A DNA stretch of 37,490 nucleotides from an uncultured virus (IMG/VR IMGVR_UViG_3300042993_000002) (Duplodnaviria > Heunggongvirae > Uroviricota > Caudoviricetes). Below, in pieces: positions 12,329 to 35,719 of this stretch (position 1 is the first letter of the stretch; each line of letters starts with the position of its first letter). The stretch lies in the IMG/VR virus record IMGVR_UViG_3300042993_000002; one strand, given 5' to 3'. A program made the position numbers and the translations under genes. The notes under the pieces were generated by a model that did not search any database, was not told where the DNA came from, and saw only the letters and a program-made list of their open reading frames with translations.

Positions 12329-12329
12329 C

Positions 12330-13384: not shown

Positions 13385-13386
13385 AG

Positions 13387-13806: not shown

Positions 13807-13826
13807 TCTAACAAAGGAGGATTCAA

Positions 13827-14429: not shown

Positions 14430-14968
14430 GTGGACTACACACTTGGCGCTCTATTGCAGGCTATGAAGGTCTTTACGATATAAACGAGTGCGGGGTGGTT
14501 AGAAGCTGCCCTCGCCGCGTATCCCGAGGCACGTATGAAGTCGACTGGACGGGTGGCTACATGTCTCCAAATGACCATACGAGCGGTTACTCGCAAGTCC
14601 ATCTTTCAAAGGATGGTGTGATTGAATATAAGTATATTCACAGATTGGTGGCGGAAACATTCCATGAGAACCCTGAAGGTAAGGCATATGTCAACCATAA
14701 AGACGGGAACAAGAAGAATAACCACGAACTAAATCTTGAATGGGCAACTCCCACAGAGAATTCAAATCATGCACTTGAAACTGGACTTAGGCCAAGAAAT
14801 CTATTGACAGTATTTGATAAAGCCGGTAACATCCTCTACACAGACAAGGCAGTATACGAGCTTGTCGAGTTAGGGTATCAGCAACCTGCGATTTCACGAT
14901 GCCTCAGTGGTAAGCTAAAGAGCCATAGAGGTTGCACATTCCAAATTCAGAAGGAGGATTTACAATGA
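14426..14968 (+). CDS. free-standing NUMOD4-HNH homing endonuclease
   Basis: WRSIAGYEGLYDI (NUMOD4); HRLVAETF..VNHKDGNKKNN..NLEW (HNH); C-terminal NUMOD1-like ISRCL. Confidence 0.92.
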   Translation: MSGLHTWRSIAGYEGLYDINECGVVRSCPRRVSRGTYEVDWTGGYMSPNDHTSGYSQVHLSKDGVIEYKYIHRLVAETFHENPEGKAYVNHKDGNKKNNHELNLEWATPTENSNHALETGLRPRNLLTVFDKAGNILYTDKAVYELVELGYQQPAISRCLSGKLKSHRGCTFQIQKEDLQ

Positions 14969-16506: not shown

Positions 16507-16512
16507 TGTACC

Positions 16513-16547
16513 AGCCCCACTGACTATATGCGGTGGGGCTTTCTTTT
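16513..16547 (+). terminator. rho-independent terminator
   Basis: AGCCCCAC...GTGGGGCT followed by TTCTTTT. Confidence 0.8.
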
Positions 16548-16563
16548 CTAAGGAGGATTCAAA

Positions 16564-16782
16564 ATGAAAGACGCTCTGAGAGCATTGTTTGCACGTAAAT
16601 ACTTCATCACTTACGAGCTGAATCATTCCACCACTGGTCATAGGATCACTGGTTGGACCTTACGTCACCTGTGGCCGTGGCAGAACCTTGTACTTGAGGT
16701 CAAGACGCTGCGGGCCACAAAGCTGCATGAATTTGAAACTATGATTGACACTTTCGATGTCAAGACGGTGGGTCGCGTATGA
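16564..16782 (+). CDS. hypothetical protein
   Basis: AAGGAGG RBS. Confidence 0.75.
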   Translation: MKDALRALFARKYFITYELNHSTTGHRITGWTLRHLWPWQNLVLEVKTLRATKLHEFETMIDTFDVKTVGRV

Positions 16783-17237
16783 CTATCACTACCAAGAAAG
16801 GCTGTCTGATTGAAGGCTTCAAAGCTGGTGAAGTGGAAGCTATTGGGCATCAAGCCAACTGCCAGAACACAATGAACTCTGGCGTAGCCAAGGCTCTACG
16901 GGCTGAGTGGCCTCAAGTGTACGAAGCTGACTGTCAAACCCTCAAAGGTGATGTCAATAAGCTGGGCTCTCTGAGCTTCACGTTGTGTGAGCACGGCCCA
17001 ATCTTCAACCTGTACGGGCAACAGTTTTACGGGCGTGAGAAGGGTGTTGTATACACTTCGTTGGAAGCCCTTGACAAAGCCTTCGCAACTATGCGACTAT
17101 TCGTAGATGCTGGCGAACACAAAAGCGTAGGCTTCCCGAAACTAGGTGCTGGCTTGGGTGGAGCGAAATGGGCTGATGTTGAAGCTCTGATCGTGAAGCA
17201 CTTCGCTGGAATCGACGTGACGATCTACGTCAAATGA
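16779..17237 (+). CDS. macrodomain protein (ADP-ribose binding/hydrolase)
   Basis: HQANC..MNSGVAKAL, NLYGQ, FPKLGAGLGG..W. Confidence 0.9.
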   Translation: MTITTKKGCLIEGFKAGEVEAIGHQANCQNTMNSGVAKALRAEWPQVYEADCQTLKGDVNKLGSLSFTLCEHGPIFNLYGQQFYGREKGVVYTSLEALDKAFATMRLFVDAGEHKSVGFPKLGAGLGGAKWADVEALIVKHFAGIDVTIYVK

Positions 17238-19476: not shown

Positions 19477-19952
19477 TGCTAAACCCCGCTGAGCTGAAAG
19501 CCTTAGATTTTAGGATTGGAAGAAATGCTGATCGTTTGATTGCTAAGGCTCAGCGGACGGTGTACACTGCAAAAGTTGGGAAGTTAGGTAGACCCGAAGC
19601 TTCCTTCAGCAACTGCGTACTCCCCGAAATGGTGGACGTGCGAATGAGTGGTGAGGACTGGCCACTCTGGGTTGACGATGTGTTGGCTGGAATTACACGG
19701 CTTGACTGGTATGCACAAGATGAAGATCAGGTTCCTCTTTCGATGGGGAAACTGTTGAAAATCTTCTGTAGTCTTGATATCATCAGCACTTCGCATGTGA
19801 GCCAGTTGTTACAATTGGGAGAACGACAAGCGAGACGTTATTTCAAAGCTGCACAGTTGGCACATCCAAAACTGATCGACGGGTACTGTGACGACACTGT
19901 ACACTCGATCCGTTATCCAGAAACATTTATCTATTATGGGAGATTACAATGA
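19476..19952 (+). CDS. hypothetical protein with probable HTH
   Basis: ISTSHVSQLLQLGERQARRYF resembles a helix-turn-helix; GGAGG RBS. Confidence 0.7.
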   Translation: MLNPAELKALDFRIGRNADRLIAKAQRTVYTAKVGKLGRPEASFSNCVLPEMVDVRMSGEDWPLWVDDVLAGITRLDWYAQDEDQVPLSMGKLLKIFCSLDIISTSHVSQLLQLGERQARRYFKAAQLAHPKLIDGYCDDTVHSIRYPETFIYYGRLQ

Positions 19953-21052
19953 GCGTATTCAATCGAGCAGGCGTGGCTGAGAAACCTGTGATCGCTGCTG
20001 ACCGTATGGGTGTCCCTGTACGCAGTCCGTTTCAAGAGGTGGCCGTAGCCAAGCCTTCGAACATGATGCAGCTCAAGGTTATCTCCGATGCTGACATTGA
20101 CAAGATTGGTGAATCCGTCTCTCGTGAGATTGGGCAAACCACTCAGAAGATTATTGACAAGATGGCTGTCGGTAAGTTTGATGAGCTGGGTGCAATCCTG
20201 ACTCAGATCAGCAACGAAGCCAACAAGCTGGACCCTGCTTCTATTCAGAGGGATGGCCTTGTAGGTTGGTTCCAGAACAAGTTCACTGACGTTAAGGGCA
20301 GGCTCATGCTTCGGCTGAACACAGCCCAGCAAGTGTTCCAAGGTCTGGAAGAGAAGATCAGTGCTCACATTACCGTGCAAAGTGCTTGGGTTGTGGATTT
20401 GGATATGCTGTACAATGAAAACTTCGCTCACTATAAGAAGATTGTGACTGAAATCACGGAAGTGGAACGTCTGAAGGCGTATGCCGAGCAGCAGATCGCA
20501 TCGTGGCCTGAGATTGACCTTAATCACCCTGAAGCTGCCATGCAGTCTCAATTGCTACGTGACGCACAGACAAAGGTGAATCGTTTAGACATGAAGGCTG
20601 ATAACCTTCGTCGTTTGAAAGCGATGACTGAAATCAATAGTCCAAAGATTCGCTCGCAACAGGATGCAAGTCGTGCTACTATCTCGACTCTCAAGGATGT
20701 GATCACTCAGACGATCCCTATCATCAAGATGGAGTTCGCAATGTTCCTGCAAACACTGGACGTGCAAAAGAGTGTATCTCTGACCAGTGAGGTCAGGAAT
20801 TTGGCAACAAAGACCTTGACACAGGGTGCAGAAGGAGCGAAAATGGCTGCCATCGCAAGCGCTACAGCGATGAACACACCAGTGATCACCACACAGACTC
20901 TTCAGACTCTGCGTGCCAAGATGCTGGAAACCGTTACAGAAGTAAATCGTGTAGAAGCTGCTGGTCGTGACCAACGCTCTGCCGATGCAGTAGAACTAGT
21001 ACAAGGTCAGAAATCGCTGTTGACAGCACTGACCCAACAAGGTAAGATTTGA
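19949..21052 (+). CDS. TelA/KlaB-like toxic anion resistance protein
   Basis: Long coiled-coil; GLVGWF; LDMLYNEN; PKIRSQQ...TIPIIK pattern; ter gene context. Confidence 0.8.
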   Translation: MSVFNRAGVAEKPVIAADRMGVPVRSPFQEVAVAKPSNMMQLKVISDADIDKIGESVSREIGQTTQKIIDKMAVGKFDELGAILTQISNEANKLDPASIQRDGLVGWFQNKFTDVKGRLMLRLNTAQQVFQGLEEKISAHITVQSAWVVDLDMLYNENFAHYKKIVTEITEVERLKAYAEQQIASWPEIDLNHPEAAMQSQLLRDAQTKVNRLDMKADNLRRLKAMTEINSPKIRSQQDASRATISTLKDVITQTIPIIKMEFAMFLQTLDVQKSVSLTSEVRNLATKTLTQGAEGAKMAAIASATAMNTPVITTQTLQTLRAKMLETVTEVNRVEAAGRDQRSADAVELVQGQKSLLTALTQQGKI

Positions 21053-21086
21053 CTCTCAAATCACAAACTAATCTAAAGGAGGATAT

Positions 21087-21737
21087 ATGGGTATGGCAAT
21101 GTTAGACCTGACTAAATCGCTGGAACTGAATCTCGTTAAAGCGAACATCTTCACCCCAATCACTATGGCTGTGAAGCTGGCGGTTGACAAATCTGGTTCG
21201 ATGGACGATGAGTTCCGTTGTGGTTGGGTACAAGACACCCTCGACCTGTTCCTCGCTGCTGCAATGAAGTTTGATGATGACGGTAAGATGGAAATCGGCT
21301 TCTTCAACACCAGCTTCAAGCGTGAGCGTGATATGGTAGAAGCTGACGCTGGCACCTACATCCGTCGTGAAGGCATCACTGCTAACGGTGGCACCAACTT
21401 CGCAGATGCTATCAAAGGTTTGAAAGGTAGTGCAACCAAACGTGGGCTGTTCGGTTTTGGAGCTGCGAAGGCATCAACACCAACCTACATCGGCTTCATT
21501 ACTGATGGTCAGAACAACGATCAGCGTGAGTTCGAAGCTCAACTGGATTCGCTGGAGAACACCTTCGTACAGATCGTGGCAATCGGCACCGGTGTTGATA
21601 AGCGTTACCTCGACTTCATCGCTGACAAGTATGACACTGTTGAAGTGCTGTACATCCCGAATCCGAAGGCTGTAGATCAGAACCGCTTCTACGAACTGTT
21701 GCTGAACGAAGAGTTCAAGGCTTTCGCAACTAAATAA
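21087..21737 (+). CDS. vWA-domain protein (Ter-associated)
   Basis: MIDAS DKSGSM, GGTNFA, FITDG, FVQIVAIG. Confidence 0.87.
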   Translation: MGMAMLDLTKSLELNLVKANIFTPITMAVKLAVDKSGSMDDEFRCGWVQDTLDLFLAAAMKFDDDGKMEIGFFNTSFKRERDMVEADAGTYIRREGITANGGTNFADAIKGLKGSATKRGLFGFGAAKASTPTYIGFITDGQNNDQREFEAQLDSLENTFVQIVAIGTGVDKRYLDFIADKYDTVEVLYIPNPKAVDQNRFYELLLNEEFKAFATK

Positions 21738-21740
21738 TTG

Positions 21741-21769
21741 TTGACAACACAAGGGCCAGTCAGTAAGAT
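21741..21769 (+). promoter_or_regulatory. sigma70-type promoter for terC
   Basis: TTGACA-17bp-TAAGAT; GGGCCA/TGGCCC inverted repeat around the -10. Confidence 0.8.
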
Positions 21770-21798
21770 GGCCCCACACAAACACAAAGGAGAACACA

Positions 21799-22485
21799 AT
21801 GGAATTTTTCGCAATGTTAGACTGGGCTGCAATCTTCAAGATCGTGATGATTGACCTGCTTCTCGGCCTTGATAACGCCATCGTAATTGCTCTGGCATGT
21901 GCGACATTGGCAGTAAGTGTTCGAGGTAAGGCAATCCTTCTGGGTACTGCTGGTGCCATCGCACTCCGAGCCATCCTGCTGGTCTTTGCAACCTTCCTCT
22001 TGGGCGTTCCGTTCCTGAAGCTGGTAGCTGGTCTGTACCTTGTCTGGATTGGTTACTCTCTGCTGACTGGGCACGATGAACCACACGAAGTTGCACAGAA
22101 AGACACTATCTGGGGCGCTGTTTGGACCATCATCGTAGCTGACTTCATGCTCTCGCTGGATAACGTAATGGCTGTAGCTGGTGCTGCTTCTGGTACTGAG
22201 CACTCGACTCTCTACGCAATCGCTGGTATCGCTCTGAGCATTCCAGTTATCGTCTACGGTGCGAAGTACCTGTCTGGTCTGATGGACAAGTACAAAGTGA
22301 TCATCTGGATCGGTGCTGCAATGTTGGGTGTGGTTGGTGCTGAAATGCTGATCTCTGATCCATTCTTCGTACAACATGTTGGCGAAGTGAACCACTTGCT
22401 GGCTAAGGTTGTTGGTGGTCTGATCGTTGTAGGTGCTGCATTCGCCAATAAGCAAGTGAATCTTGCAGTCAAAGAAACTGCCTAA
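21799..22485 (+). CDS. terC: TerC/YjbE-family integral membrane protein
   Basis: IDLLLGLDNAIVIALA and ADFMLSLDNVMAVAGA repeats; multiple TMs. Confidence 0.92.
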   Translation: MEFFAMLDWAAIFKIVMIDLLLGLDNAIVIALACATLAVSVRGKAILLGTAGAIALRAILLVFATFLLGVPFLKLVAGLYLVWIGYSLLTGHDEPHEVAQKDTIWGAVWTIIVADFMLSLDNVMAVAGAASGTEHSTLYAIAGIALSIPVIVYGAKYLSGLMDKYKVIIWIGAAMLGVVGAEMLISDPFFVQHVGEVNHLLAKVVGGLIVVGAAFANKQVNLAVKETA

Positions 22486-22492
22486 CCCTGAA

Positions 22493-22512
22493 GAGGGGCC
22501 AGTGTGCCCCTC
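22493..22512 (+). other. intergenic hairpin
   Basis: GAGGGGC-CAGTGT-GCCCCTC; no T tail. Confidence 0.5.
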
Positions 22513-22539
22513 AAACTAAATTTAAAAGAGGACTTGATA

Positions 22540-23115
22540 ATGGAGCTTAACTTGAGCAAAACTACTATGATGTTGGACCTGACCAAAGCCGCACCTTCCC
22601 TGACCCGCCTGCAAGGTATTCTGAACTGGGATTGCCATCCAGTTCACGGGGCTTCCAAAGAGTACGGCTTCGATCTTGACGTGTTTGTCTTCTGCCTCGA
22701 TGTAAATGGTAAACTGGGTAGCACAAGCGATGTAGTGTTCTTCAACAACATGTCGGCTTACAACGGTGCAGTGGTTTACCCACGCGATAACCGTACTGGC
22801 GAAGGTGCTGATGACGAAGAGATTCTGACTGACATCAGTAAGATTCCAGCTCATATCCACAGCATTGAACACTTCGTCTTCTTGCACGAAGCTGGTGTAC
22901 GTAACCAAGACTTCAGCATGATCGCTGGTGGTGCTTTCACCCTCTTCGATCAAGACGGTAAGCTGATTCAAGAGTACAAGCTACAGCAGTTTGCCAATGG
23001 CACTGCACTTCACGTAGGTACTCTGAAGCGACAGCTTACTGGTGGTTGGGGCTTCCAGCCAATGGGCGAATCGGCAGTTGCCGGTCCAAATGATGTAATG
23101 AAAGCTTTCGTGTAA
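22540..23115 (+). CDS. terD: TerD/TerZ-family stress protein
   Basis: FDLDVFVF, VVFFNN, DNRTGEGADDEEI, W.FQPMG. Confidence 0.9.
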   Translation: MELNLSKTTMMLDLTKAAPSLTRLQGILNWDCHPVHGASKEYGFDLDVFVFCLDVNGKLGSTSDVVFFNNMSAYNGAVVYPRDNRTGEGADDEEILTDISKIPAHIHSIEHFVFLHEAGVRNQDFSMIAGGAFTLFDQDGKLIQEYKLQQFANGTALHVGTLKRQLTGGWGFQPMGESAVAGPNDVMKAFV

Positions 23116-24869: not shown

Positions 24870-25018
24870 CACGCAAGAATAATGAGAATCCTACAGGATG
24901 GACAGCTTATGTAGCAGCCTATAAAGCTGCTCACCCTGACGCCATCATTGATTACAAAGTGCTGATGCAACAATATATAAAGGGCGTTGCCCTTCCAACT
25001 ACAGGAGTGAATCCATGA
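24866..25018 (+). CDS. small hypothetical protein (50 aa, GTG start)
   Basis: GTGA/ATGA coupling exactly fills the gap. Confidence 0.55.
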   Translation: MTRKNNENPTGWTAYVAAYKAAHPDAIIDYKVLMQQYIKGVALPTTGVNP

Positions 25019-25209
25019 AATTACCAATGCCAACCGCACAAGAGATTTATAACCTTGCTGATCGTGCTGAAGCAGCCATCTACAACTCAGGAGCACGTAC
25101 TGCTGACAAACACATTATTGAGAACGCTATTCGTAACGCTCTTCAGATTGTGATTGACAGGATGGACATTCAGATAGCTCCCGTCAGTCTTGATCTGGGT
25201 AAGTCATAA
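25015..25209 (+). CDS. hypothetical protein
   Basis: AGGAG RBS. Confidence 0.7.
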   Translation: MKLPMPTAQEIYNLADRAEAAIYNSGARTADKHIIENAIRNALQIVIDRMDIQIAPVSLDLGKS

Positions 25210-25424
25210 TGTCTGAAGCAAAGAGTAGTATTGAAGCTCTGCTTGCCATGATGCGGGTAACCCTCACTCCTGAAGAAATGAAGATTAGACAGGAGAAAAC
25301 TCTTGCACTCCATAAACAAATGGATGAGGAAATGATTGAACGGCACCGTTGCGGAGACTGCGGAGTGGATACGATCAACTACAGCCACTCATTCAGATGT
25401 CCTCGACGTGGGGGTGGCTACTAA
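25209..25424 (+). CDS. small protein with C-terminal CxxC...HxxxC zinc motif
   Basis: HRCGDCG...HSFRCP; TAATG coupling. Confidence 0.68.
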   Translation: MSEAKSSIEALLAMMRVTLTPEEMKIRQEKTLALHKQMDEEMIERHRCGDCGVDTINYSHSFRCPRRGGGY

Positions 25425-25711
25425 TGGAGCATGAAGGAAGACTGTTTGGGAATATGGAAGAACTAGAAAAGGACGTTCTTCGATATCAATCTCGTATGAG
25501 CATTGCACAAAGCATTGTCTATATGAAGCCACGTATGATAATGGACTTCGGAACACATAAGGTGCAATGGGTGTTGATCGAGAGTCATCATGACTTTCAG
25601 AAGATCATGGGTCTTCAATTCTCCCAGATGATGTTTGATGTTTCATTCCCTCATGACTGTCTGAGTTACTGTTTGTCTAGACTCAGAGCACCATCGAGAC
25701 ATGCCAACTGA
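25424..25711 (+). CDS. hypothetical protein
   Basis: TAATG coupling at 25424; last + strand gene of the block. Confidence 0.68.
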   Translation: MEHEGRLFGNMEELEKDVLRYQSRMSIAQSIVYMKPRMIMDFGTHKVQWVLIESHHDFQKIMGLQFSQMMFDVSFPHDCLSYCLSRLRAPSRHAN

Positions 25712-25772
25712 ATTTCCCAATCCCGCGATTTTCAGATTGAGACTTTCTCTAGCACACAATCCAAACCCCGCC

Positions 25773-25805
25773 AAAAATAAAGCCTCCTTCATTGGGGGCT
25801 TTTTC
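25773..25805. terminator. probable bidirectional rho-independent terminator
   Basis: AAAAATAAAGCCTCC-TTCATT-GGGGGCTTTTT. Confidence 0.8.
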
Positions 25806-26005
25806 ATGCCTGTCTGAAAACCTCCGAACCCGCAGTGGTGCTTAGCACGAAGCAAGGGGCCACTATGCTCGCCCGAGCAATTTGAAAATAAGCTGGCATC
25901 AACTTTGCATAAAAGAATGTCTCTTTCACTCACACGCATGCACACTACATAGGGCACGCACACAGAATACATGTCGCATATCTGTATCATTTTGTCAGTG
26001 GGATA

Positions 26006-26021
26006 TGTTCCACGTGGAACG
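26006..26021. promoter_or_regulatory. parS-like centromere palindrome (Pseudomonas-type)
   Basis: TGTTCCACGTGGAACG; 15/16 match to TGTTCCACGTGGAACA. Confidence 0.8.
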
Positions 26022-26198
26022 AAAACACACTCGAATCTGTCTGTAACCCTTGTACTAGAGCGTTATATCTCACAGTGCATATGCATTTGGGGATATACGG
26101 TCGCATGATATATAGAGGAACGTGTGAGCAACACGCTACGGCATGTATCATGCTCTACTGTTGTAGCGACAGCTACGTTAGTATTACATTGATTATTG

Positions 26199-26226
26199 TT
26201 GACATGCACACACAGACATGCATCCT
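26199..26226 (+). promoter_or_regulatory. possible sigma70 promoter pointing into the hairpin array
   Basis: TTGACA-16bp-CATCCT with an AT-rich upstream region. Confidence 0.35.
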
Positions 26227-26357
26227 ACGCACACGATAGGGGTATTAGGAATGCTTCGCATATGAGAAAACGAGAGAGAAAATGTCGCTCGCTTAGTCCA
26301 CAAGTGGCCTGCTCACGTGGGAAAGGGGTTTATCATGTTTTGAGGGTATTTCAGCTT

Positions 26358-26689
26358 ATACCGTAGGTATGATGGGATATCATGCAAAGCCTTATTCTAT
26401 ACGGCCTGCAAGGCCATAGGAGGCGTTTTAGTCCGTAGGACTGAGTAGGGTAGCCGCTAGCCGTAAGGCTAGGTTAGAAGACCTTTTAAAGAGGTTTTAC
26501 AGGGGTTTTCATTAATGAAAAAACCCCTTTCTAAGAAAGTCTTTTGCTCTTTTCTTCTGTGCTAACTCTTAAACCGTAGGTTTGAATATTGAACTACTGA
26601 AAGCTTACGCTTTCCAGAATCTGACTAGAAAAGAGTCATGTGCTAGGCGTATGGAATACGCATTAAATCCAGCTAGACGCATTTCGTCT
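26358..26689 (+). repeat. array of about 10 short inverted repeats, several with GNA triloops
   Basis: ATACC-GTA-GGTAT, GGCCT-GCA-AGGCC, AGTCC-GTA-GGACT, CTAGCC-GTAA-GGCTAG, AAACC-GTA-GGTTT, GAAAGC-TTAC-GCTTTC, GCGTAT-GGA-ATACGC and others. Confidence 0.75.
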
Positions 26690-26732
26690 CTAAAGAGTGT
26701 TGCGGCTGTTTTGTTGGTGAAATGTTGTTCAT

Positions 26733-26990
26733 TCATGGGATGTCAGTCTCAGGAATGAATGGGCATGTAAAGTCATAGTCTGTAACGCGTTCAATGGGTT
26801 CTATGATGTTGTAGGGCTTGAGCCATTTGGTTAGCTCACGGTTGGCGTATTCATCGCCCCAAGCCACTGCAAAGCTATCAGAACGCTTTACAAGCATTGA
26901 GTGACAGTCAGCTTCTGATGGGCTGCTATCTATGATGTAATCATTACAATGTGCTGCATTGATGCACAGAGACAAGATTAGAGCAAACAT
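26733..26990 (-). CDS. small exported Cys-containing protein
   Basis: AAGGA RBS; MFALILSLCINAAHC...C. Confidence 0.72.
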   Translation of the reverse strand: MFALILSLCINAAHCNDYIIDSSPSEADCHSMLVKRSDSFAVAWGDEYANRELTKWLKPYNIIEPIERVTDYDFTCPFIPETDIP

Positions 26991-27085
26991 TATTTTATTC
27001 CTTTAGCGAGCTTGATAAGCATGGTGAGGATGAAATAGCCAAGTGCAATAGCGATGATGTCAAACATATCTACGACAAGCTCCAT
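26990..27085 (-). CDS. single-TM micropeptide (31 aa; alternative start 27067)
   Basis: MELVVDMFDIIAIALGYFILTMLIKLAKGIK; TAATG-coupled to the next gene. Confidence 0.55.
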   Translation of the reverse strand: MELVVDMFDIIAIALGYFILTMLIKLAKGIK

Positions 27086-27144
27086 AGAACACCTATTGCG
27101 ATAATGGCTGTGAGATAGATTGTGATGTACCTGAGTGGCATCAT
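27070..27144 (-). CDS. single-TM micropeptide (24 aa)
   Basis: AAGGAG RBS directly after a promoter; MMPLRYITIYLTAIIAIGVLWSLS. Confidence 0.6.
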   Translation of the reverse strand: MMPLRYITIYLTAIIAIGVLWSLS

Positions 27145-27172
27145 GTTGCAAGCTCCTTTAGTGTGTGACAGC

Positions 27173-27201
27173 ATCTTATCAACCATCACACACTAGAACA
27201 A
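27173..27201 (-). promoter_or_regulatory. early sigma70 promoter
   Basis: TTGTTC-17-TAAGAT; TAGTGTGTGA/TCACACACTA inverted repeat around the -10. Confidence 0.7.
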
Positions 27202-27208
27202 GCTTTAT

Positions 27209-27457
27209 TTACAATTCTTCACTGTAGGATGCCACTTTAGGCGTTGCCTGCAAGGTGAATTTGTAGACACCGCCAGCGGCCATAAGAGACTTAATCACAG
27301 CAGCTTTGCCTTCGGCTTGTGCTTTGTCGTCGCCCAATTGAATCAGGCAAAAGTGAGTGTAGGCTGGCTTTTCGCCTGTCCAATCCATGCCACTCTTGAC
27401 AGATACATTCAAGCTGAATGTGTGGCCGTAGACGCTTACAGTGTTTTCCAGTTTCAT
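27209..27457 (-). CDS. hypothetical early protein
   Basis: Own promoter; CATCATG start context. Confidence 0.75.
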   Translation of the reverse strand: MKLENTVSVYGHTFSLNVSVKSGMDWTGEKPAYTHFCLIQLGDDKAQAEGKAAVIKSLMAAGGVYKFTLQATPKVASYSEEL

Positions 27458-27511
27458 GATGTTACCCTATCTAGAGTGGGGCTGGCTTGATTGCCTTGCC
27501 CCTTGAAACAC

Positions 27512-27540
27512 ATTCTAGACCTATGGAAAAGGCATTGCAA
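27512..27540 (-). promoter_or_regulatory. early sigma70 promoter
   Basis: TTGCAA-17-TAGAAT. Confidence 0.72.
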
Positions 27541-27545
27541 GCGGA

Positions 27546-27788
27546 TTATGAAATTATTTTGCAGAGCATTCCTTTAGGCATGATGAACTGCAAAGCAAAC
27601 TGCTGTGCATCCTCAAGCTGTGCAAAGCTTTCAAACTTCCAACCAACATCAACCCCACCACTTGTGGTGCTCACCTCATAGGATGGCACGTGGATTGCTT
27701 CCATACCCGGCTGTGCCGTTGTTTGAAAGATGTTCGCCACTTTGACAGATTCAAGGTTGGCGTTGGTAAAGGTTTGAATCTTTTTCAT
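27546..27788 (-). CDS. hypothetical early protein
   Basis: GAGG RBS and CATCATG at 27788. Confidence 0.75.
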   Translation of the reverse strand: MKKIQTFTNANLESVKVANIFQTTAQPGMEAIHVPSYEVSTTSGGVDVGWKFESFAQLEDAQQFALQFIMPKGMLCKIIS

Positions 27789-27819
27789 GATGCTGTGCCT
27801 CATTGGTGGGTGTGAAGCC

Positions 27820-27848
27820 ATTGTATCGACCTCACAACCCCAGTGCAA
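27820..27848 (-). promoter_or_regulatory. early sigma70 promoter
   Basis: TTGCAC-17-TACAAT. Confidence 0.72.
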
Positions 27849-27853
27849 GCTAT

Positions 27854-28183
27854 TTAGAAACCTTTTTTCAGGCTTTCGATCAATTTATTTTGTTCGCTGA
27901 TTTCCCAAGCAATTTGGTCAATCTTCTTGACAACTTGCCCCGCTTCACCATTACCGTTAACGATGCGGCCAGCGAAGCGTTGAGCGTCTTCCCGATACCA
28001 GAAGATGGAAGCACGTTCAACCCTGCACCACTTGCCTTGCACTTCGTCCATCGGTAGGCGGATATTGTCACCGACCACTACAATATAGCCGTCTGTAGTG
28101 TCGATTGCTTCAAGCTCTGCAATACGGGCTTCAGCTTGTTTGATGGCGTCTGCAAAGTAGGCTTGAGCGGCTTCTTTGTTCAT
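27854..28183 (-). CDS. hypothetical early protein (coiled-coil ends)
   Basis: AAGG RBS; CATCATG. Confidence 0.78.
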   Translation of the reverse strand: MNKEAAQAYFADAIKQAEARIAELEAIDTTDGYIVVVGDNIRLPMDEVQGKWCRVERASIFWYREDAQRFAGRIVNGNGEAGQVVKKIDQIAWEISEQNKLIESLKKGF

Positions 28184-28235
28184 GATGTTCTACCTTTGGT
28201 TGGCTGGGAAGCTGTCTTGCTTCCCTATGTCTGCC

Positions 28236-28263
28236 ATTCTACAGAAGCCACAACACACGTCAA
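28236..28263 (-). promoter_or_regulatory. early sigma70 promoter
   Basis: TTGACG-16-TAGAAT. Confidence 0.72.
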
Positions 28264-28276
28264 CAACTATTTCGAT

Positions 28277-28342
28277 CTAATTAAAGAGGATATACAAACC
28301 CCAGAATATGGCGATCATGCCAATTATATTAAAGATGTCCAT
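28277..28342 (-). CDS. putative hydrophobic micropeptide (21 aa)
   Basis: MDIFNIIGMIAIFWGLYILFN; weak RBS. Confidence 0.4.
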   Translation of the reverse strand: MDIFNIIGMIAIFWGLYILFN

Positions 28343-28493
28343 CTTTCAGAGTCTCACATTTTTCATGGTTGTGTCAATAGGGGCTAGAAGCTCCTGTAGT
28401 GCGTTTTGAGCGGCTTTAGTGTCAATCTATACACTGGCCTAGCCTACCCTTACAAAACGTCGTGCTTAATTTGTCAATACCTTATCGATTGAA

Positions 28494-28787
28494 TTATTCT
28501 ATGCCTTTTGCCCTATTGGTTAAGATTGTGCGAACTGTAGCACGACGCAATGCAGCCTTGACAACCTCAGTCACTTCAGTTAAGCCCCAGTCTGCCCCAC
28601 CATACGCCACAAACTGCCCATTGCCTTTGTAGTCGATTCGCATGATGTTGTGGCCCTTGCGATTCTGGATATACACACGGTTATCATGCCCGCCAAGCAA
28701 ATGACCATTACCCAAGGCAGCACAGCGAAGGCCGTGACGAATCTTTGCGATCATTACAGGATGGGTCAGACTGGTAATGGTGATCAT
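28494..28787 (-). CDS. hypothetical early protein
   Basis: AGGA RBS; 97-aa ORF. Confidence 0.75.
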   Translation of the reverse strand: MITITSLTHPVMIAKIRHGLRCAALGNGHLLGGHDNRVYIQNRKGHNIMRIDYKGNGQFVAYGGADWGLTEVTEVVKAALRRATVRTILTNRAKGIE

Positions 28788-28813
28788 GGCGAGCGTCCTA
28801 GAGTGTTAGGTGG

Positions 28814-29038
28814 CTAGACTTTCTGGAACTGTGAGTTGTAAACAACCCCATTGATTTCTTTTGCTGCTACTGCTTTGGCAACTCCGTAGCTATTCCAACT
28901 GGTTTGCCAGATGCCACTTGAGAACACATGAAAATTCATACCACGCTTAGATGCGGCTTCTATGGCTTGCTTTCCGAGTGCGTTCATTTCGTTTTGCTCC
29001 GTTTGTGAACAGGCATCATATCGAAGGGCTCGACTCAT
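28814..29038 (-). CDS. hypothetical early protein
   Basis: AAGGG RBS; 74-aa ORF. Confidence 0.72.
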   Translation of the reverse strand: MSRALRYDACSQTEQNEMNALGKQAIEAASKRGMNFHVFSSGIWQTSWNSYGVAKAVAAKEINGVVYNSQFQKV

Positions 29039-29060
29039 TGCAAGCCCTTAAACTATGAAT

Positions 29061-29267
29061 CTATTCCACTTTTGCTATCTTGCCGTCAACCATCGTCACG
29101 TTAGCGAAAAACTCACGTTTGTAGCCTGTCAAGTGTGGGCGATTGCAGCCACACAGTTTACCGTCTGGCTTGTATTCAGCACCGAACATGGATGTTTCAG
29201 TGAATTTCAAAGGCTGGCCAATGCACTCTTTCATAGCCTTTTTGGTTTCATAATTGAAGATCAACAT
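29061..29267 (-). CDS. hypothetical early protein
   Basis: AAGGA RBS; Y.TKKAMKE.IG..L.F.ETSMFG.EY motif typical of a small phage family. Confidence 0.8.
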   Translation of the reverse strand: MLIFNYETKKAMKECIGQPLKFTETSMFGAEYKPDGKLCGCNRPHLTGYKREFFANVTMVDGKIAKVE

Positions 29268-29306
29268 AGCGGCATTTCCTTTGTGTTGTTGCGTTGGTGT
29301 GTAGGC

Positions 29307-29335
29307 ATCTTATCAATACCGCCAACCATTGGCAA
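29307..29335 (-). promoter_or_regulatory. early sigma70 promoter
   Basis: TTGCCA-17-TAAGAT. Confidence 0.72.
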
Positions 29336-29352
29336 GCGGTATTACTAAAAAT

Positions 29353-29589
29353 CTACAGATAAAAATCGCTGTTATCCAGCCATTCGATAACAGGCCGCAT
29401 TGCCCAACCATAAGAGACGTAATCACCTTGACAGCTTTGCAAAACATCGCCCTCAAACAAGCTAATGGCAAAGCTGACACTACCGTCTGGCGTGGTGATT
29501 TTGTAAATCTTGGCGGACTTGTCTGGCCCATACGATTCGTCGCCGTCTGTCAACCGAGTGAAAGTGGCCACGTGCTGATTTGTGTTCAT
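29353..29589 (-). CDS. hypothetical early protein
   Basis: GAGGTG RBS before ATG 29589. Confidence 0.72.
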   Translation of the reverse strand: MNTNQHVATFTRLTDGDESYGPDKSAKIYKITTPDGSVSFAISLFEGDVLQSCQGDYVSYGWAMRPVIEWLDNSDFYL

Positions 29590-29590
29590 G

Positions 29591-29806
29591 TCACACCTCA
29601 AAGTCAAACGTCAGGGTTGTGTAGTGACGGGTAAACTTGCCGTCATTGGTTGTCATTAGAGAACTGTAGCCTGTAGCTTCTGAAAAGCGTTTGCGATTGT
29701 CAGCGGCTGTACAACGGCGCCATACGTCACAAATGCGAATGAAGTGCGTTTGCTTTTCAGTCTTATTGTTAATGACTGTCATGATTTCAGACTGATACTT
29801 TGCCAT
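29591..29806 (-). CDS. hypothetical early protein
   Basis: AGGA RBS; CATCATG. Confidence 0.75.
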   Translation of the reverse strand: MAKYQSEIMTVINNKTEKQTHFIRICDVWRRCTAADNRKRFSEATGYSSLMTTNDGKFTRHYTTLTFDFEV

Positions 29807-29839
29807 GATGCTACGTCCTGTTTCGGTTTGTGTAGGGCC

Positions 29840-29867
29840 ATTCTACCAGAGTGAACAGCCCTTGCAA
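29840..29867 (-). promoter_or_regulatory. early sigma70 promoter
   Basis: TTGCAA-16-TAGAAT; 10-bp stem overlapping the -10. Confidence 0.7.
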
Positions 29868-29871
29868 GCTT

Positions 29872-30153
29872 TTATTTTGCAGGATAAACCCGGCGGTAAT
29901 CATCCTTTGCAAAATACACAGAATCCTTCAAGCCATGCTTAACAGCTCGTTTGCGGTACAGCTCCCACACTTCGACAGCTACGCCACCTTCACCGACATA
30001 CTCGCCATTGGCGTCATAGTTGGTTGTCACTTCAGCAGATCGGCAGCCGTAGTTTGCCATCGTATCACCGAAAAACCGCATGGACGAACGGTCAAAATAG
30101 TGGCCTTCGGTGTTGGCTTGCTGTACGTGATATTTCAGGTCTGAAGGTGTCAT
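29872..30153 (-). CDS. hypothetical early protein
   Basis: AAGGA RBS and CATCATG at 30153; GHYFDRSSMRFFG motif. Confidence 0.78.
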   Translation of the reverse strand: MTPSDLKYHVQQANTEGHYFDRSSMRFFGDTMANYGCRSAEVTTNYDANGEYVGEGGVAVEVWELYRKRAVKHGLKDSVYFAKDDYRRVYPAK

Positions 30154-30182
30154 GATGCGTATCCTTTGTTTGTGTGTGGCCC

Positions 30183-30210
30183 ATTCTACCGAATTGAATG
30201 GGCAATGCAA
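30183..30210 (-). promoter_or_regulatory. early sigma70 promoter
   Basis: TTGCAT-16-TAGAAT; perfect GCCCATTC/GAATGGGC stem. Confidence 0.7.
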
Positions 30211-30218
30211 GCCCTAGA

Positions 30219-30719
30219 TTAATAGTCCTGCAAGATTTCTTGCATGGCTTGACGTTCGGTGCCAGTGAAGAACGAACGCATTTTTGTCAAGGTTTCACAG
30301 CATGCATTGTAAATGCCTTGAGCCTTGATGCTGTCTTTATCGTAACCGAAATCGTCGCACCAGTCATGAAAATTCTGTTCGGCGGAACTGGAATCCAGAA
30401 GCAAGCTATGCAGCACGCTGGCCACGTGAGGCGCTACAGCTACCGAATGACGGGCCTTGATGCTTTCGAGGTAACGAGCGCTCGACTTGCCAGCACGACG
30501 CAACTCAAACTCGCCTGCTTTAGTCAACTGGCGGTGACCGGTGCCAGTGTAGAAGTCAGAAAACATTTCCTTACCTTCACGGGTAAACTTACACAACCAT
30601 GCGTCACACTCCCAGCCATCGCGATTGCTCGCTACGCCACCGACAGCCATAAACGTAACACCTTGAGCTTTCAGGTATTCAGTGATAGCAGTTTCGATTG
30701 GGTTGATTTGCTTAGTCAT
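30219..30719 (-). CDS. hypothetical early protein
   Basis: AAGGA RBS; CATCATG; NFHDWCDDFGYDKDSIKA motif. Confidence 0.8.
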   Translation of the reverse strand: MTKQINPIETAITEYLKAQGVTFMAVGGVASNRDGWECDAWLCKFTREGKEMFSDFYTGTGHRQLTKAGEFELRRAGKSSARYLESIKARHSVAVAPHVASVLHSLLLDSSSAEQNFHDWCDDFGYDKDSIKAQGIYNACCETLTKMRSFFTGTERQAMQEILQDY

Positions 30720-30769
30720 GATGCAATCCTTTTCAGTTGGTAGAAGCTTGTTCGCTTCTGATGTTGGTC

Positions 30770-30797
30770 ATTCTACAGGGTTGAACATCCCTGTAAA
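30770..30797 (-). promoter_or_regulatory. early sigma70 promoter
   Basis: TTTACA-16-TAGAAT; TACAGGG/CCCTGTA inverted repeat. Confidence 0.7.
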
Positions 30798-30806
30798 GCT
30801 TTATTT

Positions 30807-30902
30807 TCATCCTAGAGAAAGAAACAGACACGTGATCGATACGCACCACACAACGAATAGAAAGCTGAAGACGATTATTAACACCTTTTCAATGCTGGTC
30901 AT
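30807..30902 (-). CDS. single-TM micropeptide (31 aa)
   Basis: GAGGTG RBS; MTSIEKVLIIVFSFLFVVWCVSITCLFLSLG. Confidence 0.6.
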   Translation of the reverse strand: MTSIEKVLIIVFSFLFVVWCVSITCLFLSLG

Positions 30903-30937
30903 GCGTCACCTCTTCACCCTGGCCTAATGTGTGACAG

Positions 30938-30963
30938 AGAAAAGCCCCGCTGTTAGGCGGGGC
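30938..30963 (-). terminator. terminator downstream of the DGQHR gene
   Basis: GCCCCGC..GCGGGGC followed by TTTTCT on the - strand. Confidence 0.8.
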
Positions 30964-30976
30964 AAGGGGTTTGCTG

Positions 30977-32434
30977 TTAGGCCGCGTCTGGCTTTTCAGC
31001 GGTACGGCTTGGGAGTTTCAACATCCAGCGAATCATGTCACCAATGATCGGATAGATATCGTTATGACGAGTGCCGAATTTCATCCATTTGTTTTGCACA
31101 TCAAACACACCGACAGAGCGGTTAGTGTCGCCACCATCAGGCAGATAGTCACGCAAGCCGTTAAGCTTTTGCTTGATGCGTTCTTGCTCAGTCAGGTCAT
31201 AAAACCGCCATACAGGGTTAGTGTGGCTGAAGTTGACTTGTGACAAGCCTTGCAGAAGCCTTTCGAGGTCTTCACCGGCTGTAGCGTCACGACGACGACC
31301 AAACCCGAGGTCGTACACCAGTTTTGCTACAGCCTTGACGACTACAGGCTGTGCCAGCACCGTGTAAGCTTTAGCCCCCGGCTTACCAAATCCCGGAACG
31401 TTAGCGATAGCGCCCCATGCTCTGCAAGCTGTGGCATATTTTTCTTCTACATCGGCAGGTGTGGCACTGGCAATGCTCGTTTTGTTCAGGAACAGGATAG
31501 CGTTAGTCGCTGCAAGGTCGCGGAATGTCCAGCGGCCTGTATCCTTGTTCCAGTTGGATTGATCACCGTCTGTTACGTCGTCCCAGTCCAGAATGTGAGG
31601 CAGTAGTTCGTTCTGGATGAACTGGTTAACAGGGTTGGCGCTGTCAAACTTCAGAGCCAGCGAACGCTCCACCTTTTTAGCAAGGTTGTTCAGGTCGTGG
31701 AACAATTGCTGTTCTTCCCGAACGCCAAGCCCTAGGTGAATCTCTACAGCGATCTTGCTAAAGCCCCGTGCAACTTCGTCGCATTCGTCCCATGCCGCCA
31801 GCACTTCAGTAGGGATTGGTTCCTTGAAGTTGCCTTCGAACAGCTTTGGCTTGCGTGGATATTTCCGATTGAGCCTGATTTCAGTCAGGAATTCGAAAAC
31901 CAAATCCATTGCATAACGACGGTGCTGACCATCGATCACATACAGCATGTCACGCTGACCAAGGAACACTTTAAAGCACGCCGTCTCACCGTCGGCTTCC
32001 ATCCGCTTTCCTTCGATGCCAGCGCCACCGGGGGCAACGGTGCGAAGGTTGCAAACGATAGGCTGCAAACTCATGTAGGTTTGTGGCCCCATCACCCTTT
32101 GAAGCTCATGCAATGCCAGCGATTCTGGCTTATTGAAGTTGCGGCGGTATTCAATAGCCGCTGCAATCATGCCGCGAAGGATGTACTTTGCCAGACCGGT
32201 GGCGTGTGCCTCATTGAGTGGGCGTTGTGTGGCTGGCGAGCCATCAGGCTGGCGCTCGTTTGCCACCTTGCTCATGGCGTAGAAGTCTTTCATTGGGATC
32301 AGGGCGATAAAGGTGCGATGCCCCAGATTGTGACCAATGAACACCTTTTCAGGTCTGACTTGAGAATCAGCTTCTTTCAACAGAGAGTCAATCGAAGCAA
32401 GCGGAGTAGGAAGCGATTCATTATGCATAAACAT
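30977..32434 (-). CDS. DGQHR-domain / DndB-like protein (ParB/Srx superfamily), 485 aa
   Basis: QRPLNEAHA..LAKYI, YVIDGQHRRYA and QQLFHDLNNLAKKV are DndB/DGQHR signatures; AGGAG RBS and CATCATG at 32434. Confidence 0.88.
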   Translation of the reverse strand: MFMHNESLPTPLASIDSLLKEADSQVRPEKVFIGHNLGHRTFIALIPMKDFYAMSKVANERQPDGSPATQRPLNEAHATGLAKYILRGMIAAAIEYRRNFNKPESLALHELQRVMGPQTYMSLQPIVCNLRTVAPGGAGIEGKRMEADGETACFKVFLGQRDMLYVIDGQHRRYAMDLVFEFLTEIRLNRKYPRKPKLFEGNFKEPIPTEVLAAWDECDEVARGFSKIAVEIHLGLGVREEQQLFHDLNNLAKKVERSLALKFDSANPVNQFIQNELLPHILDWDDVTDGDQSNWNKDTGRWTFRDLAATNAILFLNKTSIASATPADVEEKYATACRAWGAIANVPGFGKPGAKAYTVLAQPVVVKAVAKLVYDLGFGRRRDATAGEDLERLLQGLSQVNFSHTNPVWRFYDLTEQERIKQKLNGLRDYLPDGGDTNRSVGVFDVQNKWMKFGTRHNDIYPIIGDMIRWMLKLPSRTAEKPDAA

Positions 32435-32460
32435 GATGATGTTTCTCCTAGAGGTTACGA

Positions 32461-32476
32461 CGTTCCACGTGGAACA
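32461..32476. promoter_or_regulatory. parS-like palindrome in the 5' leader of the DGQHR gene
   Basis: CGTTCCACGTGGAACA; inverted identical copy of 26006-26021. Confidence 0.8.
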
Positions 32477-32519
32477 TCTTTCAAGCTGGGGTGTTGTGTA
32501 TTCCCCTTGCTTGATTAGG

Positions 32520-32547
32520 AGATTAGCAGGCTGGTTCACCATGTCAA
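32520..32547 (-). promoter_or_regulatory. sigma70 promoter of the DGQHR gene
   Basis: TTGACA-16-TAATCT with TGn extension and AT-rich UP element. Confidence 0.72.
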
Positions 32548-32570
32548 GGAAATTTTCAATTTATTTTCAA

Positions 32571-32598
32571 GAAAAGAAAAAGCCCCCGAAGGGGCTTT
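32571..32598 (-). terminator. terminator upstream of the DGQHR promoter
   Basis: AAAGCCCC-TTCG-GGGGCTTTTTCTTTTC on the - strand. Confidence 0.88.
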
Positions 32599-32615
32599 AA
32601 CATCAAGGGGTTACG

Positions 32616-32909
32616 TCAAGCGTGAAAATCTATATCTACGTCATTACCTTGCGAAAGCTGAGACTGCAAGGACATTTGCAGCTCTTCTTTGTACTCTTCT
32701 TTGTTGCTTTGAAACAGAAGCGGCGACACTTGCTGCAATACCGCACCGGGAGCGAACCCCACGTTACAGATAATTGCATCCCCATAGGTGCTATCAAGAT
32801 GCTTGACAAACTCGGCATCTGATACTTCGACCATCCCTGATGTTACATTATAACTACGGAAAGCCTTTACATTCCCCAATGCAATCAATACCCGATTCAG
32901 ACTTCCCAT
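32616..32909 (-). CDS. hypothetical early protein
   Basis: AAGGA RBS; own promoter and terminator. Confidence 0.72.
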   Translation of the reverse strand: MGSLNRVLIALGNVKAFRSYNVTSGMVEVSDAEFVKHLDSTYGDAIICNVGFAPGAVLQQVSPLLFQSNKEEYKEELQMSLQSQLSQGNDVDIDFHA

Positions 32910-32976
32910 GATTTCCTTTTTTACTCCTATGTTAGCCGGTGGCTGCCTTTGTGGCTTATTCCATCCCGGTGCGTGG

Positions 32977-33004
32977 ATGATACAGCATCTAGGAAAGGCG
33001 TCAA
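32977..33004 (-). promoter_or_regulatory. early sigma70 promoter
   Basis: TTGACG-16-TATCAT. Confidence 0.68.
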
Positions 33005-33044
33005 CAGATTTTTTTCAATCAAATCAACGCCTCCTAGGACTACG

Positions 33045-33383
33045 TTAACCCTCTTTATCGTCTTCAAAAATATACTCGTCACCTCCTACCTTCACACGAG
33101 TCATTTTCGACAGTGTGACGTTTACCCAAGGGTAGGGATTACCCTTTGCGATCTTATCAGGATCAGCGGCGGTATAGTTGTCAGGGTTGTGTGCCGCTGG
33201 ATTAGCCTGTACCACAGTATTAGTGCCGCTGGCAAGGGCTTTATTCATCCATTGCTTTAGCACTCGGCTTGTGGTAGTGCCATCCTTTTTAACCCATGTC
33301 ACAGAAAACATCTGGCCTTTATTGGTGTCCAGAATTTCCCGCTTTTTGTCGATGCTGGCGCCTTTGATGATGATGGTAGCCAT
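33045..33383 (-). CDS. Sm/SH3-like beta-barrel protein (WYL_2/DUF2693-like)
   Basis: FSVTWVKKDGT motif; paralog of 35420-35719. Confidence 0.7.
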   Translation of the reverse strand: MATIIIKGASIDKKREILDTNKGQMFSVTWVKKDGTTTSRVLKQWMNKALASGTNTVVQANPAAHNPDNYTAADPDKIAKGNPYPWVNVTLSKMTRVKVGGDEYIFEDDKEG

Positions 33384-33428
33384 TTGCCTGTACTCACTGT
33401 AGGTTAACAATTGGGTTGTGACATGATG

Positions 33429-33457
33429 ATTCTAGGTCAATCAGTCACATTCGTCAA
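33429..33457 (-). promoter_or_regulatory. early sigma70 promoter
   Basis: TTGACG-17-TAGAAT; TGTGAC/GTCACA plus TGATT/AATCA stem. Confidence 0.75.
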
Positions 33458-33519
33458 GGGTAATGGTGACAGGAAAATCATAATCATCCTCTATACAATC
33501 CATCACACCTTGAGCGTCC

Positions 33520-35419: not shown

Positions 35420-35719
35420 TTATTTGAAACTAATTTCACGACCACCCATGCGGACACTTTGAATAGTTTCCATATTGACATTCCGAAACTGTTCTTTACC
35501 GTTCTTATCTTTCTGTGCTAGCACTACAGTTAGATACTTTTCAATATGCTTTGTAGTGTTACCGCCATCATGGCCTTCTACCTTGCGAATATGGCCAGTC
35601 AGCTTGCGTTCTGTGCCATCTTTCTTGATGAATGTAACACCGAACCATTTAGAGCCATTGGACTTGATCAAGGTGGCTACAGCCTTCGACACAGCATCAG
35701 TCTTTACTACTTGAAGCAT
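35420..35719 (-). CDS. Sm/SH3-like beta-barrel protein (WYL_2/DUF2693-like)
   Basis: FGVTFIKKDGTER...FRNVNMETI. Confidence 0.78.
   Translation of the reverse strand: MLQVVKTDAVSKAVATLIKSNGSKWFGVTFIKKDGTERKLTGHIRKVEGHDGGNTTKHIEKYLTVVLAQKDKNGKEQFRNVNMETIQSVRMGGREISFK

Follow-up and report, generated by a model that had tools for sequence, protein, structure and literature searches.

Host-type parS sites beside a stand-alone DGQHR-family gene in the early region of a phage related to 100-kb Pseudomonas phages

The virulent Bacillus phage phi29 carries five host-type parS sites that have been reported to be used through the host protein Spo0J (PMC2731898). In Pseudomonas aeruginosa, the chromosomal sites parS1 to parS4 are tabulated with an identical 14-nucleotide core, GTTCCACGTGGAAC (PMC4368675, Table 1), and the same core appears in the P. 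putida parS consensus (PMC7022226, Table 1). Pseudomonas ParB has been described as silencing promoters near parS, with repression reported for PA0011 and PA0013 (PMC4368675; PMC7022226) and for the genes adjacent to the intergenic P. aeruginosa sites parS3 and parS4 (PMC7022226). For DndB of Salmonella, autoregulation and binding to palindromic sites within the promoter of its own gene have been reported (PMC4507180). Here, we analyzed a 37,490-nucleotide stretch of DNA from an uncultured Caudoviricetes virus (IMG/VR record IMGVR_UViG_3300042993_000002; hereafter, the window), in which a host-type parS palindrome lies in the leader of an early gene encoding a 485-residue protein of the DndB/DGQHR family. 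To our knowledge, host-type parS sites on virulent phages have been documented experimentally only for phi29, where they serve spore entrapment. We give an even chance to the reading that the parS sites of this phage load host ParB and that the DGQHR protein is a separately acquired nucleoside triphosphatase (NTPase) of ParB/Srx fold that reads CCWGG boxes and not parS.

Along the minus strand of positions 30938-32598, the locus consists of a terminator, a promoter, parS, AGGAG, ATG, a 485-codon open reading frame (ORF), and a second terminator. This order agrees with a preliminary description made from the sequence, with the upstream terminator called at 32598-32579 and the downstream terminator at 30963-30944. 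The parts are as follows.

32579..32598, minus strand: intrinsic terminator preceding the cassette, with a stem of 8 pairs and a T run (terminator scan).
32520..32547, minus strand: early sigma-70-type promoter, TTGACA, 16-nucleotide spacer, and TGnTAATCT (sequence; conserved in 13 of 13 leaders).
32461..32476, minus strand: parS-1, TGTTCCACGTGGAACG, in the 5' untranslated region (UTR) of the DGQHR gene (core search and leader alignment).
32449-32445, minus strand: Shine-Dalgarno sequence AGGAG (sequence).
32434, minus strand: ATG start codon, with the stop end of the ORF at 30977 (ORF call).
30977..32434, minus strand: stand-alone DndB/DGQHR-family gene (P0001), 485 amino acids (ORF call plus Pfam and TIGR profiles).
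30944..30963, minus strand: intrinsic terminator 3' of the DGQHR gene (terminator scan; conserved in relatives).

The palindrome previously noted in the gene's own leader was confirmed at 32461-32476, between the promoter and the Shine-Dalgarno sequence; its perfect 14-bp palindrome occupies 32462-32475, and 27 bases separate the core from the ATG. The promoter (-35 TTGACA at 32547-32542, TG at 32528-32527, and -10 TAATCT at 32525-32520) was not called by a consensus scan because its -10 element matches at just three of six positions. In an alignment of relatives' leaders, the block comprising the terminator, an A/T-rich stretch, and TTGAC-N17-TA(A/G)TCT-AATCAAGCAAGG was conserved in all 13, and the parS word was kept while the adjacent bases diverged. 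Contigs from two metagenome runs (X4 and X5) jump over window stretch 32435-32543, which suggests that a parS-less alternative leader, like those of two other loci (L090 and L092), coexists in natural populations.

A search for the 14-bp core allowing up to two mismatches found two copies in the window, both perfect, against 0.14 expected. One is the leader site of the preliminary description; the other had been overlooked and lies in the gap between two gene blocks.

26006..26021 (core 26007-26020), plus strand: parS-2, the same 16-mer in opposite orientation to parS-1 (core search).
25712..26732, no strand: non-coding gap between convergent plus-strand and minus-strand blocks (ORF map; the plus block ends at about 25.7 kb).

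This gap is an ORF-free space of ~1 kb, and parS-2 is retained in the nearest relatives of the window (L088, L089, and L097). The site matches the host chromosomal 16-bp consensus at 15 of 16 bases, with a perfect 14-bp core, and the exact 16-mer of the window is one of the three sites on a P. syringae-group chromosome (G002, 6.1 Mb). The earlier identification with Pseudomonas chromosomal parS is borne out by this core identity and by the presence of the word in G002. Three such sites occur in G002 and also in a second genome of the group (G003, ~6.3 Mb), compared with two in 37 kb of the window. Palindromes are otherwise avoided in the window, from which at least 12 of the six-base type are missing entirely. 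Scanning IMG/VR for the parS 15-mer returned more than 119 viral stretches, and the full 16-bp palindrome was present in 38 of the 80 listed (L099-L178), a larger share than the approximately one in four that an unconstrained last base would give.

The gene region shows ~80% DNA identity to the ~100-kb Pseudomonas phages UAVern, ventosus, Pyxpy01, Pyxpy02, Kremar, and Ep020. By protein, the DGQHR gene was found in 21 phage records, all of them Pseudomonas phages of 96-107 kb, and close relatives of the window are present in IMG/VR and in rhizosphere and plant metagenome runs. A UvrD-like helicase (window 4883-6472, plus strand) is less than 60% identical to any phage record, indicating that the window phage is a separate lineage sharing the early region. 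Either the genome is a mosaic or the early block, with its ~80% DNA identity to Otagovirus-like phages, has been exchanged between lineages.

Whole-genome counts in ten cultured relatives, allowing at most one mismatch in the core, gave six parS sites in SYP, five each in ventosus and Ep020, four in UAVern, three each in M5.1 and KoPa-4, one in Pyxpy02, and none in Kremar, VCM, and Psxphi15. These 27 sites compare with zero for a reversed-word control in all ten genomes, and 25 of them fall in a zone that begins 0.6 kb upstream of the DGQHR gene and extends 7.4 kb downstream of it, the stretch that separates the gene from the terminus or gap. Amme-3, like KoPa-4 a phage of P. putida KT2440, likewise has both parS and the DGQHR gene. 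The outer T..A bases of parS are mostly kept, and variants with GTTTCAC or GTGAAAC were seen; half-site words of this type have also been reported to be bound by ParB (PMC7022226). Among relatives that lack the DGQHR gene, parS-like words occur in phiPMW (three, each with one mismatch) and PseuGesM_254 (one), and none was found in Boevelstad, phiK7A1, or PAK_P5.

Placement relative to the ORF was compared for 30 sites at 18 loci from 15 lineages. In six lineages (the window group, UAVern, ventosus, Ep020, L091, and L093), a site precedes the ATG by 21-27 bp; in five (Pyxpy02, L091, M5.1, KoPa-4, and SYP), a site follows the stop at a distance of 1-50 bp; and no site abuts the ORF in another five (Kremar, VCM, Psxphi15, L090, and L092). 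The preliminary description had proposed surveying phage DGQHR homologues for an upstream palindrome; it is upstream in the six lineages named, and in the others it stands after the stop or does not abut the ORF. In total, 11 of the 30 sites, in 10 of the 15 lineages, abut the ORF, and the remaining 19 are found in other parts of the zone. The 5' and 3' states alternate on a tree of the gene. Since the lineages are related, these counts do not represent independent events. The abutting pattern nonetheless calls for an explanation, whether selection or opportunity, gene flanks being among the roomier spacers.

The sites are not accompanied by recognizable partition genes. ParB_N (PF02195) was found in none of five whole genomes of relatives, ParA-type AAA_31 (PF13614) was found in none of five records (four whole genomes and the 63-kb partial record G001), and no ParA, ParB, or dnd gene was present among the 40 of 77 called window ORFs scanned with Pfam. 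The claim that the window holds no ParA or dnd genes is sound for those 40 ORFs, and the lack of a cognate parA/parB and of dndCDE neighbors supports the accompanying statement that the locus does not qualify as a partition cassette or as a dnd operon. The genome ends of the UAVern and SYP records fall in the place equivalent to the window gap. SYP has a 351-bp direct repeat at both record ends with a perfect parS inside it, so that the site is carried at both genome ends. No nucleotide similarity was detected between the gap (25600-26800) and the ends of SYP and UAVern, and the equivalence of gap and terminus is thus positional only. Neither the composition nor the repeats of the gap pointed to an origin or a pac site, Rfam returned zero matches in 25000-33500, and no tRNA was found in the window. 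The gap also holds three copies of a short hairpin-like repeat, CTTAwACCGTAGGTwTGA, at 26355-26372, 26428-26447, and 26568-26588, ~350-570 bp from parS-2.

The DGQHR protein matches the Pfam DndB family (PF14072; E value of 2.9e-29, 102.7 bits against a cut-off of 29.1) and TIGR03187 DGQHR (63.2 bits against a cut-off of 58.85), and motif D168-G-Q-H-R172 is invariant in a 20-sequence alignment. Its score against the DndB equivalog profile TIGR03233 is 32.6 bits, far short of the cut-off of 328; the PADLOC DndB match has an E value of 4.9e-10. AlphaFold modeling gave a predicted local distance difference test (pLDDT) score of 76.8 for the whole protein and 90.1 for the C-domain folded alone. 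By structure comparison of the predicted model, the N-domain (approximately residues 36-256) has a ParB/Srx fold, in support of the superfamily assignment made earlier. Its matches include SspE (PDB 6jiv; Z of 8.2, root mean square deviation [rmsd] of 4.0, 154 residues aligned), PadC (Z of 7.3, rmsd of 2.9, 99 aligned), DndI (entry 9jfl; Z of 7.0), and KorB (Z of 6.3). The C-domain (residues 257-485) is predicted to be helical and has a weak best match to the helical middle part of BrxU (PDB 7p9k; Z of 4.7).

Likeness to ParB is limited to the fold, as Pfam gave no PF02195 match in the protein at an E value of ≤1. Pfam likewise gave no sequence match to HNH, DUF1524, or helix-turn-helix (HTH) families, and a ParB-type HTH was found neither by Pfam nor by fold comparison of the C-domain, in which nothing exceeded a Z of 4.7 and with which an HTH is still compatible. 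A sequence search of PDB returned nothing better than an E value of 0.17, and Foldseek with both models returned nothing at an E value of ≤0.001. Complex prediction for host ParB (Swiss-Prot PARB_PSEPK) and the phage protein scored 0.00, which is uninformative about binding in either direction. Binding of ATP and GTP has been reported for a DndB-like protein (PMC12704722).

At an E value of ≤1e-3, 1304 protein relatives were found. Among the best 120 listed, identity to the query ranges from 49 to 94%, with alignments covering 75-100% of its length (at least 96% in all but one case). Conservation across this large family is unusually high. The family occurs at 194 genome loci in many phyla, the P. 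syringae-group genome G002 being one holder of a bacterial homologue, and more than 100 columns of the 20-sequence alignment are invariant between phage and bacterial members. No conserved neighbor gene was identified among the 78 bacterial loci analyzed. The commonest neighbors are C5 cytosine methylases (16 loci), resolvases (10), and Vsr (9), joined by McrBC-like, Z1, and DUF4420 proteins and integrases, a set typical of defense islands and mobile elements; dnd genes are absent from the recurrent neighbors at these loci. At the 80 bacterial homologue loci, parS was never close to the gene; one locus has a one-mismatch word 7.6 kb away.

The element that does recur upstream of the bacterial genes is CCWGG. 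In 78 of the bacterial homologue loci (drawn from L008-L087 and spanning many phyla), the 200 nucleotides before the start contain at least one CCWGG in 72 loci and at least two in 69, with a mode of four boxes per locus. The density reaches 14.4 and 19.7 per kb in the two 100-nucleotide bins before the start, compared with 1.8-2.9 per kb further upstream, and CCAGG is the most enriched upstream 5-mer (7.1-fold) and the sole G+C-rich one among the top twelve. The boxes are phased: 136 of 195 spacings are 21-23 bp, 101 of them exactly 22 bp, and harmonics appear at distances of 31-33 and 42-44 bp. Because 22 bp corresponds to two helical turns, the boxes face one side of the DNA. Five phased CCWGG boxes are likewise found at L094, a viral contig whose protein is 49% identical. 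The simplest inference is that a protein of the DGQHR subfamily would read CCWGG boxes rather than parS. A full-text literature search combining CCWGG with DndB, DGQHR, ParB-like, or DUF262 retrieved no paper making this link, and the phased arrays represent the first concrete candidate DNA target for a widespread, uncharacterized DndB-like family.

The Pseudomonas phages that carry the gene have no CCWGG upstream of it and avoid the word genomewide. Against Markov model expectations, CCWGG was observed once in the window (54 expected), four times in UAVern (177), once in Kremar (166), once in VCM (162), and twice in SYP (112), a 44- to 166-fold depletion across these five records; GGWCC is also depleted in some. 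Simulation of the window gave 53.3 expected copies with a standard deviation of 7.4. The remaining copy lies beside the gene.

30918..30922, no strand: sole CCWGG in the 37,490-base window, starting 55 bases past the DGQHR stop and just before the next small ORF.

A CCWGG starting 46-56 bases past the DGQHR stop is seen at 7 of the 18 loci, and the genomes of Kremar and VCM contain no other CCWGG. Among relatives without the gene, Boevelstad (175 observed, 170 expected), PseuGesM_254 (134 and 149), and PAK_P5 (618 and 523) do not avoid the word. The idea that bacterial members of the family drive CCWGG avoidance by Pseudomonas phages was dropped, as sampling of 201 Pseudomonas species genomes turned up the family in just 2.

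From the sequences, their conservation and distribution, and the predicted fold, we infer the following binding partners and consequences. The parS palindromes and the DGQHR gene would be two separate things lying side by side. The leader palindrome and its twin at 26006-26021 would be loading sites for host chromosomal ParB, and a clade of virulent ~100-kb Pseudomonas phages without parA or parB of their own would keep a variable set of such host-type sites in the last ~8 kb of the early region up to the terminus. ParB clamps bound to cytidine triphosphate (CTP) would load on phage DNA as it enters the cell or replicates and would spread across the early block, where they may damp or insulate early transcription, including that of the DGQHR gene. 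A further role of ParB may be to tether the phage genome or to set its position, as with phi29 and Spo0J. The analogy with P. aeruginosa makes damping of early promoters plausible, and that with phi29 does the same for positioning or persistence of the genome. The DGQHR protein, for its part, would be expressed early from a plain sigma-70 promoter and, given that the phage genomes are nearly free of CCWGG, would act on host or other foreign DNA.

Several observations weigh against this reading. ParB loading is itself proposed from sequence identity. The sites are dispensable, since L090, with a protein 98% identical, has a different leader lacking parS, and Kremar, VCM, and Psxphi15 have the DGQHR gene and no parS anywhere in their whole genomes. 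A pure zone model leaves the adjacency of 11 of the 30 sites to the ORF, at either end, unexplained, and there may be a functional tie to the gene or its product. On the CCWGG side, another factor could be the reader of the arrays, or Dcm-type methylation control could underlie them; the family is rare in Pseudomonas; and the residual CCWGG after the gene is confined to 7 of 18 loci. Avoidance is also not specific to carriers of the gene: the gene-less phiK7A1 (1 observed, 159 expected) and phiPMW (2 and 134) avoid CCWGG as well, so that avoidance may be ordinary restriction avoidance from which the gene merely profits.

A bolder version of the two-element reading is speculative, and we consider it improbable as a whole. 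The stand-alone DGQHR family may be a CCWGG-reading nucleotide switch of ParB/Srx fold that loads at phased boxes as ParB does at parS. Phages purged of CCWGG would express the protein early to engage only host or rival DNA, a form of self/non-self discrimination by motif avoidance, and would borrow host ParB for their own DNA through parS beside the gene and at the terminus. If so, two ParB-fold systems with two "centromere" words would divide the DNA of the cell.

Alternatively, host ParB at the gene-flanking parS may be a dedicated regulator (an operator, roadblock, or silencer) that keeps DGQHR expression low or times it. This explanation is unlikely, yet of the competing accounts it survives best. 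In the window, parS-1 is placed after the promoter and before the Shine-Dalgarno sequence; a site no more than 50 bp from the ORF is kept in 10 of 15 lineages; and the repression reported beside parS3 and parS4 in P. aeruginosa (PMC7022226) offers a precedent. However, the abutting site of five lineages lies past the stop, where it cannot obstruct transcription of the gene itself, another five lack an abutting site altogether, and 19 of the 30 sites lie elsewhere in the zone. The preliminary description had suggested that host ParB acts at the leader; this part remains plausible in light of the parS3 and parS4 precedent, but a site that is one of a set spread over ~8 kb, that is 3' of the gene in five lineages, and that is absent in others is not a dedicated operator.

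A less probable alternative is that the DGQHR protein works on or with ParB-parS complexes, by co-loading with, unloading, or antagonizing host ParB, and that the gene sits beside parS for action in cis. Both proteins would have ParB/Srx-fold nucleotide-binding domains, as judged for the phage protein from its model, and adjacency recurs at either end of the ORF in states interleaved on the tree. ParB-family genes commonly adjoin their sites, which counts in the same direction. Opposed to this, the gene is found without any parS in three phages and without parS nearby at 80 of 80 bacterial loci, and parS-like sites are found in phiPMW (three) and PseuGesM_254 (one) without the gene. The more than 100 columns invariant between phage and bacterial members further argue for an activity unchanged between them.

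It is quite improbable that the DGQHR protein binds parS itself as a ParB mimic, regulating its own gene and competing with the ParB of the host, a second possibility raised in the preliminary description. The parS word is in the leader in six lineages, its half-sites (TTCC/GGAA) resemble the flanks of some CCWGG boxes, and the reported binding of DndB to palindromes in its own promoter (PMC4507180) would be a parallel. The upstream element of the family is CCWGG, however, and not parS, which was near none of the 80 bacterial homologues. In addition, parS is lacking in three phages that carry the gene, and Pfam gave the protein no PF02195 match at an E value of ≤1 and no HTH match.

That the palindromes have no ParB-type partner, being chance words, RNA hairpins of UTRs, or remnants of recombination with host DNA, is very unlikely. 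In favor of this, their presence or absence varies even between close relatives, and abutting sites are transcribed as 5' or 3' UTR. Against this stand the two perfect 14-mers in the window where 0.14 were expected, the 27 sites in ten genomes compared with none for the reversed word, the keeping of the word while its flanks diverge, and the copies in the non-coding terminal gap.

We give almost no credence to a DndB-like repressor shutting off host dnd phosphorothioation and restriction genes, the third earlier suggestion, for which family membership (PF14072 and the PADLOC DndB match, E value of 4.9e-10) is all that speaks, against a score of 32.6 bits where the DndB equivalog cut-off is 328 and bacterial relatives outside dnd operons, among Dcm-type methylases, Vsr, resolvases, and integrases. 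The anti-Dnd phage protein JSS1_004 is described as a kinase/shutoff protein and is not DndB-like (PMC12345140).

Other genes of the window were noted in passing.

19949-23115, plus strand: tellurite-resistance-type cluster of TelA, vWA-TerF-like, TerC, and TerD.
10993-17237, plus strand, upstream of the tellurite-type cluster: T4-type RNA ligase, PRPP-synthetase-like protein, NAPRTase, and macro-domain protein.
33045-33410 and 35420-35719, minus strand: early genes, both phrog_2267, paralogues within the early block.

Returning to the reading in which parS serves host ParB and the DGQHR protein reads CCWGG, each element can be set against its known counterparts. The DUF262-type ParB/Srx sensors (SspE, DndI, and GmrSD/BrxU) resemble the phage protein in the predicted fold of the N-domain, in the weak likeness of the C-domain to BrxU, and in the defense-island setting of the family. 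In contrast to SspE, GmrSD, and BrxU, the phage protein has no DUF1524 or HNH match in Pfam, stands alone, and is phage encoded. It shares PF14072, the DGQHR motif, and a ParB/Srx fold with DndB (TIGR03233), which is reported to bind palindromes before its own gene (PMC4507180), but it scores below the equivalog cut-off, lacks dndCDE neighbors, and belongs to a subfamily whose element is a CCWGG array and not TACG-N10-CGTA.

With the Pseudomonas chromosomal ParABS system, in which parS1 to parS4 lie near oriC, the phage sites share the identical core and an intergenic position beside promoters. They differ in being carried on a genome without parA or parB and in their turnover, present in one phage and absent from a close relative. 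The nearest parallel to the phage as a whole is phi29 (and Nf), described as a virulent phage that has several copies of host chromosomal parS and no partition genes of its own (PMC2731898); with that precedent published, to call the present locus an undescribed phage module, as was done initially, was an overstatement. Use of ParB by the present phages would follow from their sites. The reported use in phi29 is forespore trapping (PMC2731898), whereas the 21 carrier records here are all Pseudomonas phages. Moreover, as far as the sequences tell, the sites here cluster in the terminal early region, with one usually abutting the DGQHR gene. Pseudomonas forms no spores, and the finding that parS sets are maintained and turn over in phages of such a Gram-negative host suggests that lytic phages make wider use of host ParB, which could serve silencing, positioning, or persistence.

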